A stretch of DNA of 64,000 nt. Source: Alphaproteobacteria bacterium (GTDB lineage: Bacteria > Pseudomonadota > Alphaproteobacteria > RF32 > CAG-239). Positions 41,548 through 46,162 of the stretch are shown here, one piece after another. Below the pieces are notes generated by a model. The model was not told the DNA's origin and made no database searches. It saw only the letters and a program-made list of their open reading frames with translations. The position numbers and the translations under genes were made by a program. How positions within the stretch are numbered: position 1 is the first letter of the stretch; every line of letters starts with the position of its first letter. The stretch lies in assembly GCA_015062585.1 (NCBI GenBank), contig SUUJ01000002.1:81263-145262 (forward strand), written 5' to 3'.

Positions 41548-41594
41548 TTAGACAAAAAAACTTGTCTAAAAGTATTTTTTGTGATATTATCACA
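41548..41594 (+). promoter_or_regulatory. Two perfect palindromes (candidate operator sites) in the promoter region of the giant ORF
   Basis: TTAGACAA-AAAAAC-TTGTCTAA at 41548-41569 and TGTGATA-T-TATCACA at 41580-41594, 30-80 nt upstream of the AAGGAG RBS and ATG at 41626. Confidence 0.4.
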
Positions 41595-41625
41595 TCATAA
41601 TGTACAATCATCAAAGGAGCTCGAT

Positions 41626-44600
41626 ATGTCAAAATGGGATGACTATAGCATTTCAGAGGAAGAATGGAAATACTTAAAGAAAGTGACAGGAGAGGATATT
41701 GATAACTATAATGGTTATCGAATGGAGGTGTTTTTGCTAACAAATAAAGGGATTTTAGAGACATATCGTAACCCAAAAAAAGTTGAAACCTCTACTGAAA
41801 ACAAAGAGAATATTCCGTCTCAAGACAGCAAAGAAGATCAAACTAAAAAAAGCATGGAAGAGCTTAAAAAAGAGCTTGAAGTAAAAAAAGCTGAGTTGAA
41901 GGCTTATTATAAGAAAAATCATGAAGAAAATGATGTAATTGATTCTGAAGAATTTAAGAATTGGAAAGACGAGTATATAAAGAACAATCCCAATGATACA
42001 AAATTTCAAGAGCTGGTCAAAGAAATTGAAAGAATTAAAACCGCTATCGATGCTTTAGAAGGACATCAATCACAAGTACAAGCTACACAACAAGCGCAAG
42101 ATAAAAAGGCTGATACAAAGGTAAAAACATTAGAAGAAAAGATAGAATATGCCGAAAATGTATTAATCGGCTATTTGGGTATGAGGTACGAGGAAGAACA
42201 TCCTGATGAAAATGTTAATCAAGGTACTTGGGAAAGCGATGCTTATAAACAATGGGTCGAGAATTATGGCAAAACTCATCCTAATGACGAAGACTATAAA
42301 AAGTATGTAACTGAATTTGAAAAATTAAAAGCCGAAAAGCAAGCGCAAGCTACACAGGCTGATACAAAAGCGAATGCAACTACACAGGCGCAAGCTGTCA
42401 CCGGTGGTGATATTCCTGTCATTTCTGGTTCAACTAGCGAACAATCAGAAAAAACAGACAAACAATCAAGCGATACTATGGTTGTAAACGAAGCTTCGGA
42501 TGAAGCTGGCACTTTGAATGTAAATGAGGACGATGCTGAAAATCGTATTCCGACAGAAGAATTAAAATCCGTTTATACATCAGACGAATGGAATCAAATA
42601 CTTACTATAGCGTCAAAAACAGCGGTGCATACAGCCGCTCAAATAGATGAAGGTATAGTTTTTGCTGCACTAAAAGAAGTTCTAGATGAAAATACACCAA
42701 AAAATTGGGATAGTATGACACTTGATGAACAAGAAAAATTTATAAAACAATTGTCTCCTGAACAAATGAGTAAATTTAACGATAAAGTGACAGAACTAAG
42801 CAAAAAAATAGCCGAAACATTACCTCCGGAATATTTGGTAATGACAGTTGAAAGTATTGATAAATCACTAGAATCAAAAGATATAAAAGACGAAGAAAGA
42901 AAATCATTAGAAGAACAAAGAAAAATCATAATAGACACGATGTGCAATGTGATATCTCAGGTGCCTGAAAATGTTACATTTGATCCGGAAAATGCTGCAG
43001 GAGCATATGATGGTTTTATGTCGATGATTAACTATCTGACAAGTGATAAAAATAAAAATATAGAAATTGATAATAAAAAAGTAGAACAGATTAAACAAGC
43101 GTTTGAAGTTGCGCTTAAAGAATATGATGATATGAATGGCTTGTCAGGAATTGACGAAAAATCATCAGAAGAACTTCTCAAGACATACAACTATATTGAG
43201 AAAAAAGCAAAGCAACAAAAATTTGAAGATTTATTAGACGATGAAACAAAGGAAATATTCAATCTTCTGGAATTTCCTGATACGACTGATGAAAAAGGAA
43301 ACCAAACTTCATCAGAAAACAACAAACAGCTATTTATTGAAGCTATTGTTAATAAAGCTATCCAAAAAGCATCTGTTGCCAATTGTGGTAAAAGCAAAGA
43401 AGAATTAGAAAAAGCATTTAAAGAAGAATTATTAGAAACTACATTATCTGAAACAATAAACCTTATTGCTTCTCAAGAAGTGGTTGATCAGGCACAAGGT
43501 AAGGGTTTTACCCTTGATCCAAAGGCGGATGTTAAAGACACCAAAGAACAGATTAAAGCTTATATTAGTACAGCTTATCCGAATAAAAAGAAAATCAAAA
43601 TTTCTCAAAAAGCCTTAACAGGGTACTTTGCTTATACCGTAAACAAGCAATCATTATTTGTAAATCGACTTGCCAACAAACTTAAAGATCGCTCAGCAGT
43701 CATTTTGCAAAAGATGTGGAAGCCATTTCAAAAAATTGATAGAACCTGTATAAACCGCTTTGGTCAAGCGTACACTCTTGCAAAGTCTATAGTAAAAAAT
43801 CAAGTCAAAAATTTACCTTGGACACTAGGTATGGCTGCAACTCGTATTGCCGCATTTTCTCTTGCAGCAACACCGTACGGATGGGCAGCTGTAGCAGGGT
43901 ATGGTCTTATAAGTGTTGGTGTTACAACTTATAGGATGATAAAAAATTATAAAGAATTGAAAAAAGAAAATCCGAATTATAGCAAAAAAGAGTTTTTCAA
44001 ACAAAATTGGAGCGGAATGGTCCTAAGTGCCATCGGTACAGCCGCTTCAGTTATTCCCGGACTTGGTGCCAGTGTCGAGGGACTTCAAGGTGCGGTTGAT
44101 TTTATGAAAACAACAGGAATGCTAAGTCAAACGGGCATACCCGTTGCATCACAATTGGGTATGACCAACGTTAGTGTTGCTATGGTAGGAGCTGGTTGGG
44201 CCGATTCCACTATTCGCGGAACTGCAGCTCAAAGAAAAAGAGGTGAAAGTTTTGGTAGAAGTCTTTTGTTTGCAGCTACTTCAAGCACTCTCAACACTGC
44301 CGCGAGTATAGGTATGAGCGTGGGTTGTTCTCAAGCTTGTAATGCAGCATTCAATAGCGGTATGAACCTTATAGGAGATACCCGAACGATAGATTCTTCC
44401 GAAGGTAATATGGAAAGAGATGTCACGCCTGTAGAATTTAATCAAAAAATTGAAGAACTGGGCTTAAGCGATGAATTAAAGAGTCTTCAAAACGGTAACT
44501 TAACACAAGAAGAGTATAACCAAACTCTTGAAAAAATAAGTGATACCTTAAAAGAAAATGGTCTTATATTAAAAAATACAGAAGATGAAGCCAAAGCTGA

Positions 44601-46113: not shown

Positions 46114-46130
46114 TACCTCGCTTCAAAAAC

Positions 46131-46162
46131 AAAAGCCCCGTCTGCTTAAGGCGGGGCTTTTT
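46131..46162 (+). terminator. Rho-independent terminator after the giant ORF
   Basis: AAAAGCCCCGTCTGCTTAAGGCGGGGCTTTTT. Confidence 0.85.

Follow-up and report, generated by a model that had tools for sequence, protein, structure and literature searches.

A large dnaJ-linked protein family of uncultured gut Alphaproteobacteria with a probable five-pass membrane module

The stretch of DNA analyzed here (the window, 64,000 nucleotides of contig SUUJ01000002.1, assembly GCA_015062585.1) contains a giant gene that diverges from dnaJ and encodes a real, unannotated, large protein. Our data indicate that this gene is vertically inherited and clade-specific, and that it is no horizontally acquired toxin. 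Its product belongs to a small family, probably of five-pass membrane proteins whose N-terminus is cytoplasmic and whose C-terminus lies outside. We give an even chance to the fuller reading, built from sequence features, in which the product is a clade-specific inner-membrane protein acting as a trans-envelope scaffold or organiser. The gene is the same as GenBank MBE6467293.1, which carries the label "hypothetical protein E7004_01690" in an Alphaproteobacteria metagenome-assembled genome (MAG), and it lies in a mechanically found open reading frame (ORF) spanning 41542-46113, with AAGGAG 6 nucleotides 5' of the ATG at 41626. An earlier annotation made from the letters of the DNA (the sequence-only reading) had described an ORF of about 4.5 kb and about 1500 amino acids with this start and ribosome-binding site, which agrees with the NCBI call, and had ranked its product as the window's best candidate for a novel functional protein; our data support it as the most novel gene there. 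The protein was also said to have three blocks. Its N-terminal and C-terminal blocks are indeed variable, and its middle, which holds a membrane-type region, is conserved, but the toxin or translocator identity attached to them is not borne out. The parts of the gene are as follows.

41614..41619, plus strand: ribosome-binding site AAGGAG, from the sequence.
41626..46113, plus strand: giant gene, 1495 amino acids and a stop codon (MBE6467293.1), identical to the NCBI call.
41626..42480, plus strand: variable acidic N-terminal region, amino acids 1-285, outside the conserved core in alignments.
42481..43770, plus strand: conserved all-helical domain, amino acids 286-715, from family alignments; AlphaFold2 (AF2) predicted local distance difference test (pLDDT) mostly 80-95, no fold match.
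43771..44352, plus strand: putative membrane module, amino acids 716-909, with five marginally hydrophobic helices, from hydropathy, AF2, loop charges in 8 members and HHalign to protein P0004.
44353..45360, plus strand: conserved alpha/beta C-domain, amino acids 910-1245, with an AKIMGNN motif at its end, from family alignments.
45361..46110, plus strand: optional C-terminal extension, amino acids 1246-1495, with a net-positive tail, missing in most orthologues.

The relatives compared here come from a scan of one genome per GTDB species together with metagenome contigs, and they are uncultured gut Alphaproteobacteria. A family member is divergent from and adjoins dnaJ in 12 of 12 lineages examined, including two that were picked via DnaJ alone, and the adjacency holds over DnaJ identities of 61-95%. 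It is likewise present in all five GTDB species-level MAGs that are labelled Alphaproteobacteria with animal-gut style names. One genome, GCA_045639065.1, has the same gene order as the window (dnaJ / giant gene / tRNA-Arg / 363-amino-acid lipoprotein / His_Phos / murI / tRNA-Val). Distant members, with a core identity of approximately 25-29% by tblastn and 26-32% by phmmer, keep the dnaJ pairing and have accD, rpsA or UPF0102 on the other flank, and across all relatives the far flank of the giant gene is tRNA-Arg with the lipoprotein gene, accD, rpsA, UPF0102 or dnaK. At two loci picked via DnaJ relatives (74% identity), a large family member without a Pfam match lies between dnaK and dnaJ, again divergent from dnaJ. 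The giant gene has stayed beside dnaJ through many rearrangements.

The sequence-only reading had pointed to a strong terminator followed by tRNA-Arg(ACG), and had treated the tRNA as a possible island boundary. Both elements are present between the giant gene and its convergent neighbour.

46131..46166, no strand assigned: hairpin terminator with flanking A-run and T-run (hairpin 46131-46161), between the giant gene and the convergent tRNA-Arg.
46210..46286, minus strand: tRNA-Arg(ACG), a syntenic neighbour and no island boundary.

The hairpin at 46131-46161 and its U-run have a predicted stability of -22.5 kcal/mol (z = -4.2). This terminator and tRNA, together with a long, helical protein with a central hydrophobic region and two variable termini, would fit a horizontally acquired toxin or polymorphic-toxin island at tRNA-Arg, or a prophage remnant encoding, for example, a tape-measure or ejection protein. 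We consider either origin barely credible, since the gene occupies the same dnaJ locus in all relatives, the tRNA-Arg is itself syntenic in the close relatives L001, L003 and L005, and the GC content is ordinary (0.34-0.395 over 42001-46000 of the gene versus 0.32-0.40 over the window). Comparison of the dnaJ/tRNA-Arg junction in relatives found a family member beside dnaJ in every one examined, an outcome that had been named in advance as contradicting the sequence-only reading. Furthermore, no integrase, transposase, immunity gene, phage gene or secretion gene was seen in the window, whose other genes include the housekeeping genes dnaN, dnaA, accA, accD, dnaK, rpsA, lon, murI, rnpA and yidC. 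The protein had no PHROG match and no relatives in 2.9 million viral contigs, and it matched no PADLOC defence-system model. A false lead is thereby removed, in that the locus is no toxin island and the tRNA no insertion boundary.

The protein had also been called an orphan, which is wrong at the level of the family. When amino acids 286-1245 were used as the query in an exhaustive HMMER search of 1.84 billion representatives, 39 representative clusters sharing the core were returned at E <= 1e-3, 20 of them at E <= 1e-30, and most of these proteins are 1100-1400 amino acids long. A word-index search recovered four proteins only, its profile-seeded version gave just the three closest ones, and a scan of metagenome contigs with two peptide patterns gave no match. 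We also found a second kind of giant protein, P0004 (1763 amino acids, positions 844-6135 of L002, downstream of trkH), which shares with the family only the membrane module, at an HHalign probability of 96.8% and E = 2.8e-10, and an N-terminal module of approximately 60 amino acids. In one metagenome contig, L016, the giant-gene orthologue at 3974-7802 is split into ORFs of 1030 and 213 amino acids, whereas the near-identical L015 has a single ORF of 1237 amino acids; the split is either a variant (frameshift or pseudogene) or an error of assembly.

Searches of Pfam, NCBIfam, PHROGs and PADLOC with the giant protein gave nothing significant (DUF7310 came closest, at E = 0.23). Pfam found nothing across 40 family members except a low-complexity PARP match in one of them, and neither the protein nor the family profile retrieved more than noise (E > 0.01) from the PDB sequences. 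The sequence-only reading had recognised no catalytic motif, and our Pfam, NCBIfam and PDB-sequence searches likewise found no catalytic or family signature. With the family alignment, AF2 gave models of pLDDT 77 for the core and 79 for the C-domain. Foldseek of the core against PDB had no match at E <= 1e-3, and the matches seen were generic helical repeats with a TM-score <= 0.10. Since the models are usable and no PDB fold matches them, the two soluble core domains, as modelled, are without a recognisable relative among solved structures. Foldseek on AlphaFold models had been proposed as a check of the toxin or translocator likeness, and no PDB match supported it; by sequence or fold the protein belongs to no toxin, translocator, RTX, autotransporter or phage family. 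Specifically, Pfam and NCBIfam searches of the protein and Pfam searches of the 40 members found no glucosyltransferase, C80 protease, TcdA/TcdB pore region or CROP repeats. Pfam had no match to the IpaB/SipB or YopB/SseC translocator domains, no HemolysinCabind match of RTX type and no autotransporter domain. In the protein and the family members Pfam also found no Sel1/TPR, LysM or peptidoglycan-binding domain.

We found that the part most widely common across the family is the membrane module. A hydrophobic centre rich in Gly and Ala had been noticed before, with three or four segments; it is present and rich in Gly, Ala, Ser and Thr, but it contains five segments. The hydrophobic peaks start at amino acids 730, 754, 799, 838 and 881, with Kyte-Doolittle means over 19 residues of 1.0-1.6, and residues 730-772 form a bilobed hydrophobic hairpin of approximately 43 amino acids. 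AF2 models all five segments as long helices (H1 to H5). Loop charges were counted across eight aligned family members, with the following ranges of basic (K/R) and acidic (D/E) residues.

Before H1 (30 amino acids): K/R +5 to +8, D/E 1-2.
Loop H1-H2 (5 amino acids): K/R 0, D/E 0.
Loop H2-H3: K/R +6 to +8, D/E 1-5.
Loop H3-H4: K/R 0-2, D/E 0-3.
Loop H4-H5: K/R +2 to +6, D/E 1-3.
After H5 (30-47 amino acids): K/R +2 to +3, D/E 6-10.

Loop charge alternates between basic and neutral in all eight members, as in polytopic inner-membrane proteins, although hydrophobicity is marginal. By the positive-inside rule, asymmetry of loop charge predicts membrane orientation, and the alternation therefore points to an inner-membrane protein with the N-terminus in, five passes and the C-terminus out. 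The conserved pattern also favours the bacterium's own inner membrane as the site of insertion, over secretion.

The conserved core of the family, approximately 960 amino acids, corresponds to amino acids 286-1245 of the window protein, which leaves its first 285 and last 250 residues outside. In family alignments the helical domain carries the motifs YTSDEWNQ, EGI, PP..L, NAAGVYDG and YD..NGL, and a basic juxtamembrane stretch, NRLAxK...KIDxTCIxRFG (NRLA.K..NR, KID.TCI.RFG), runs from it into the hydrophobic helices. From the core, or in P0004 the shared membrane module, and the differing termini, it follows that the family is a conserved core, or at minimum a membrane module, with shuffled soluble modules. 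The conserved part runs from the helical domain through the membrane module to the alpha/beta domain, and is flanked by optional N- and C-terminal modules that have been shuffled.

At the N-terminus, the acidic character reported earlier is confirmed (D+E = 64 versus K+R = 43 in residues 1-300). An internal duplication of approximately 28 amino acids had also been described; the duplication is real but longer, with amino acids 91-166 matching 184-249 at 30% identity (E = 1e-7), and a Q/A/T-rich linker follows each copy.

41896-42123, plus strand: duplicated N-terminal module 1, amino acids 91-166, from self-comparison.
42175-42372, plus strand: duplicated N-terminal module 2, amino acids 184-249, from self-comparison.

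These two modules are also where strains differ. The window and the strain contig L003 are approximately 99% identical in nucleotides, and their divergence is limited to two N-terminal patches (41805-41957 and 42138-42317), which are the two duplicated modules, and to one 42-bp repeat unit. Module 1 is common to the giant protein and P0004, and the P0004 N-terminal module is approximately 70-80% identical, far above the remainder of that protein, which suggests that paralogous giant genes have recently exchanged cassettes. In L003, module 1 is similar to the module of P0004, which indicates such an exchange and suggests that the two N-terminal cassettes are exchanged by recombination. Strain-level exchange of this kind suggests an interaction surface under diversifying pressure.

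The core itself also changes quickly. It is 41-62% identical in relatives whose Lon shares 92-97% and whose DnaJ shares 75-95%, and 22-29% identical at a DnaJ identity of 72-74%, so that it evolves much faster than the neighbouring genes. Between the window and L003, comparing core 42481-45360 with L003 1763-4642 and dnaJ 40227-41390 with L003 1-666, we counted 18 non-synonymous and 7 synonymous changes in the core (omega approximately 0.68) and 2 and 11 in the dnaJ fragment (omega approximately 0.04), both from small counts. The synonymous rate (dS) in the same comparison is approximately 7-fold higher in dnaJ (0.086; 11/135 sites) than in the giant core (0.012; 7/602 sites), and this low value hints at recent recombination or a sweep of the giant-gene core.

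At the other end of the protein, a repeat region had been described as three copies of 13 amino acids encoded by 39-bp units. A tandem repeat is present, but its period is 42 bp and 14 amino acids and it has 2.6 copies.

45412..45519, plus strand: tandem repeat, 42 bp/14 amino acids x 2.6 (TPVENTTDQTTKDS), from a repeat search.

This 14-amino-acid unit, which contains TPVENTT, is the sole tandem repeat found in the giant protein, and strain L003 has one 42-bp unit fewer than the window. The C-terminal extension that contains it is missing in most orthologues and recurs at the C-termini of proteins P0019, P0039 and P0041. The C-terminus is basic and of low complexity. In 20 of 20 full-length members the last 25 residues are net-positive (+2 to +7; +3 in the window protein), which is a feature of type IV secretion substrates, though a weak and non-specific one. 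For comparison, the last 25 residues of window proteins have a mean charge of +0.55, and 32% of these proteins reach +2.

In the scaffold reading, the five marginally hydrophobic helices (amino acids 730-908) would span the bacterium's own inner membrane, the approximately 730 acidic N-terminal residues would face the cytoplasm, and the C-terminal part of approximately 590 residues, consisting of the alpha/beta domain, a Thr/Pro/Glu/Asn-rich repeat linker and the optional C-extension, would face the periplasm or envelope. The scaffold would thereby couple a cytoplasmic helical platform to an envelope-side domain. The soluble parts, especially the two N-terminal cassettes, would be under weak or diversifying constraint and exchanged by recombination. 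Several observations weigh against this proposal. The five helices are weak, with one of five reaching the classical Kyte-Doolittle threshold of 1.6, and AF2 confidence across them is just 45-77. A scaffold role leaves hypervariable cassettes in a supposedly cytoplasmic N-terminus unexplained, and the comparison with landmark proteins made below is one of architecture only. Moreover, a weak bilobed hydrophobic region, a missing signal peptide and a positive tail in 20 of 20 members suit an exported, membrane-inserting effector as well.

We asked how well such an effector would account for the protein. It would leave the cell by a Sec-independent route, for example type IV secretion, insert its bilobed region into a partner or host membrane and present the variable cassettes to the target. 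No signal peptide was seen at the N-terminus (MSKWDDYSISEEE), which has no hydrophobic core, and the segments are just marginally hydrophobic, as is the case for transmembrane (TM) substrates of type III and type IV secretion systems (T3SS and T4SS). The hairpin at residues 730-772 is of Inc type, the last 25 residues are net-positive throughout, and the elevated omega, recombining cassettes and variable repeat copy number, in relatives from animal-gut MAGs, would all fit. Against this, no secretion-system gene was found in the 64-kb window or any flank examined; T4SS genes were looked for in the window and in flanks of up to 10 kb in relatives, and T3SS genes in the window and flanks. No effector, translocator or toxin family matched by sequence or fold, every relative has one copy of the gene, always at the same core locus, the positive-inside alternation most simply reflects insertion in the producer's own membrane, and the basic tail carries little specific information. 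We therefore regard an exported effector or translocator as unlikely, while allowing it a real chance. A broader proposal, to which we assign a fairly low probability, is that uncultured gut Alphaproteobacteria have in this family an unrecognised class of contact or effector protein, core and linked to dnaJ, whose weakly hydrophobic five-helix module might insert in a partner or host membrane or form a trans-envelope conduit, with recombining N-terminal cassettes and swappable C-terminal modules on folds for which no relative has been solved.

The intergenic region between dnaJ and the giant gene is approximately 190-310 bp throughout and has conserved blocks for both genes. In the scaffold reading, transcription of the giant gene would use a sigma-70 extended -10 promoter with T(T/A)GACAAA near its -35, back to back with a sigma-32-like dnaJ promoter. 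The elements of this region are the following.

41438..41466, minus strand: probable sigma-32-type dnaJ promoter, CTTGCA-17 nt-CTAAAT, a block in all 12 lineages.
41546..41571, no strand assigned: first palindrome TTTTAGACAA-N6-TTGTCTAAAA, whose right arm holds the -35 hexamer, from the sequence.
41548..41556, plus strand: conserved element T(T/A)GACAAA(A), which forms the first palindrome's left arm; its position is kept in all 12 lineages.
41562..41590, plus strand: predicted sigma-70-type promoter of the giant gene, -35 TTGTCT, 17 nt, TG-extended -10 TATTAT; 9/12 matches, TG present.
41580..41594, no strand assigned: second palindrome TGTGATA-T-TATCACA, overlapping the extended -10.

The dnaJ-side block is kept in L001, L003, L005-L011, L013, L015 and L017, where its conservation exceeds that of the intergenic DNA around it, and it resembles the alphaproteobacterial RpoH (sigma-32) consensus CTTG-N17-CYTATNT. 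On the other side, the pattern TTGnnn-17-TGnTAnnnT is kept in all lineages compared, and T(T/A)GACAAA sits 3-6 nucleotides upstream of the -35 in 12 of 12 lineages. Elsewhere in the window this element is not enriched (8 matches versus 4.5 expected). A conserved T(T/A)GACAAA cis-element exists here and may bind a regulator.

The two palindromes had been presented as operators. Both are where they were reported to be and the left arm of the first is deeply conserved, but the symmetry is not, and the second is at chance. The first, TTAGACAA-N6-TTGTCTAA at 41548-41569, has arms extendable to 10 bp, and its N6 symmetry is found in the window and L003 only. In six other lineages TTGACA-N15-17-TGTC(A/T/C)A brackets the -35, with the inverted partner inside the -35/-10 spacer, and five lineages lack this partner. 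Palindromes of the first type are common when counted with 8-bp arms (23 in the window versus 13 expected) and unusual only when counted with 10-bp arms, which give 7 position hits versus 0.8 expected, several of the others just 3' of stop codons. Other perfect inverted repeats with 10-bp arms lie at 47595-47625, 31638-31665, 46404-46430 and 63356-63385; those at approximately 47595, after the stop of the lipoprotein gene, and at 31638, after the rpsA stop, are probably terminators. Membership of the first palindrome in a genome-wide repeat family was considered and rejected by the element search of the window. For the second type (7-bp arms, spacer 0-2), the window has 19 and shuffles approximately 27, so that the second palindrome is no more than chance; outside the window it is found in L003 and, nearly, in L005 only. 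A CRP-like site (TGTGA-N6-TCACA) was also rejected for it, on the grounds of an N5 spacing, chance frequency and lack of conservation.

This shared region bears on a further explanation, namely that the protein is coupled to the DnaK/DnaJ chaperone system as a client tethered to the membrane, as an adaptor or as a factor that responds to stress, and is co-regulated with dnaJ through the shared control region. The pair of dnaJ and the giant gene is the only linkage kept through all rearrangements, including inversion relative to dnaK, and the intergenic region of consistent length, with its conserved blocks for both genes, would fit co-regulation. However, the promoters differ (sigma-32-like for dnaJ, sigma-70 extended -10 for the giant gene), Pfam finds no J-domain, known DnaK-binding domain or other chaperone signature in the giant protein, and, because these genomes are largely syntenic, the two genes could have stayed adjacent by descent with no functional reason. 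We judge chaperone coupling improbable. In the window dnaK (19524-21431) and dnaJ (40227-41390) are 19 kb apart, whereas some relatives have the giant gene placed between the two. Other J-proteins of the window are a CbpA-like protein of 314 amino acids (23070-24014) and a protein of 178 amino acids with a C-terminal J-domain (6111-6647).

With dnaN and dnaA at 380-3054, at the start of the window, the locus lies approximately 40 kb from the probable replication origin. Four nearby genes are clade-specific and have no Pfam, PHROG or PADLOC match.

37011-37853, minus strand: protein of 280 amino acids.
37853-39244, plus strand: protein of 463 amino acids; TM segment at the N-terminus, acidic coil.
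39241-40146, minus strand: protein of 301 amino acids, downstream of dnaJ.
46488-47579, plus strand: lipoprotein of 363 amino acids with a lipobox.

In several relatives with rearranged gene order, the genes for the 301- and 363-amino-acid proteins are still found close to dnaJ and the giant gene, and L015 has a contiguous dnaJ/orf302/orf366. Further ORFs of 148-625 amino acids without a Pfam match (E <= 1e-5) lie at 15429-16550, 59386-61263, 61286-62440, 58627-59073, 6644-7483 and 28502-29023, and among unannotated blocks the adjoining pair of 625 and 384 amino acids (59386-62440) is second in size to the giant gene. Lon (811 amino acids, 33090-35525, minus strand; 92-97% identity in the clade) is LonB/LonC-like and unlike classical LonA, as judged by the Pfam domains of the 95.6%-identical L001 orthologue (LonC_helical, AAA_32, LonB_AAA-LID and Lon_C). 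The window encodes an SBP_bac_5/BPD_transp_1 system together with accA and accD. In the order Rs-D84 (Enterousia), standard peptide transporters are reported to be absent and fatty-acid synthesis to be incomplete (PMC12306168), and placement in that order was dropped on account of these genes.

Lineage-specific giant membrane proteins are common in MAGs. This family is missing from Pfam and NCBIfam and has two confidently modelled domains without a relative among solved structures. If the scaffold reading is true, an abundant but uncultured group of animal-gut Alphaproteobacteria would have here an envelope protein that is core and defines the clade. The family would be a reasonable target for structure determination and for studying how these bacteria organise their envelope or contact cells.

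We compared the giant protein with several known systems. Landmark or trans-envelope scaffold proteins of Alphaproteobacteria and Gammaproteobacteria (PodJ and FimV/HubP type) are analogous in architecture: a large cytoplasmic N-terminal part, acidic and helical or coiled, is joined by a membrane anchor to a C-terminal domain on the envelope side, linkers are of low complexity, and evolution is rapid and lineage-restricted. They differ in that there is no similarity of sequence or fold, in their Sel1/TPR, LysM and peptidoglycan-binding domains, which the giant protein lacks, and in a single TM segment against its five helices. Chlamydial Inc proteins and TM-containing T3SS/T4SS effectors resemble it in a weak bilobed hairpin (amino acids 730-772 here), no Sec signal, large soluble domains, fast evolution and a basic tail, whereas the giant protein is far larger, has five helices, sits at a core syntenic locus with no secretion system seen and matches none of their families. 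The large clostridial toxins TcdA/TcdB and the T3SS translocators IpaB/SipB/YopB share with it a central hydrophobic region in a long, mostly soluble polypeptide, but none of their domains (glucosyltransferase, cysteine protease, pore region, CROP, SseC/IpaB type) was found by Pfam in the protein or its 39 relatives, and there is no structural match. KdpD differs in having four TM segments, both ends in the cytoplasm, and kinase and Usp domains that the giant protein does not have; like the giant protein, it places a large cytoplasmic domain before a central TM cluster, a topology that is known to insert normally.

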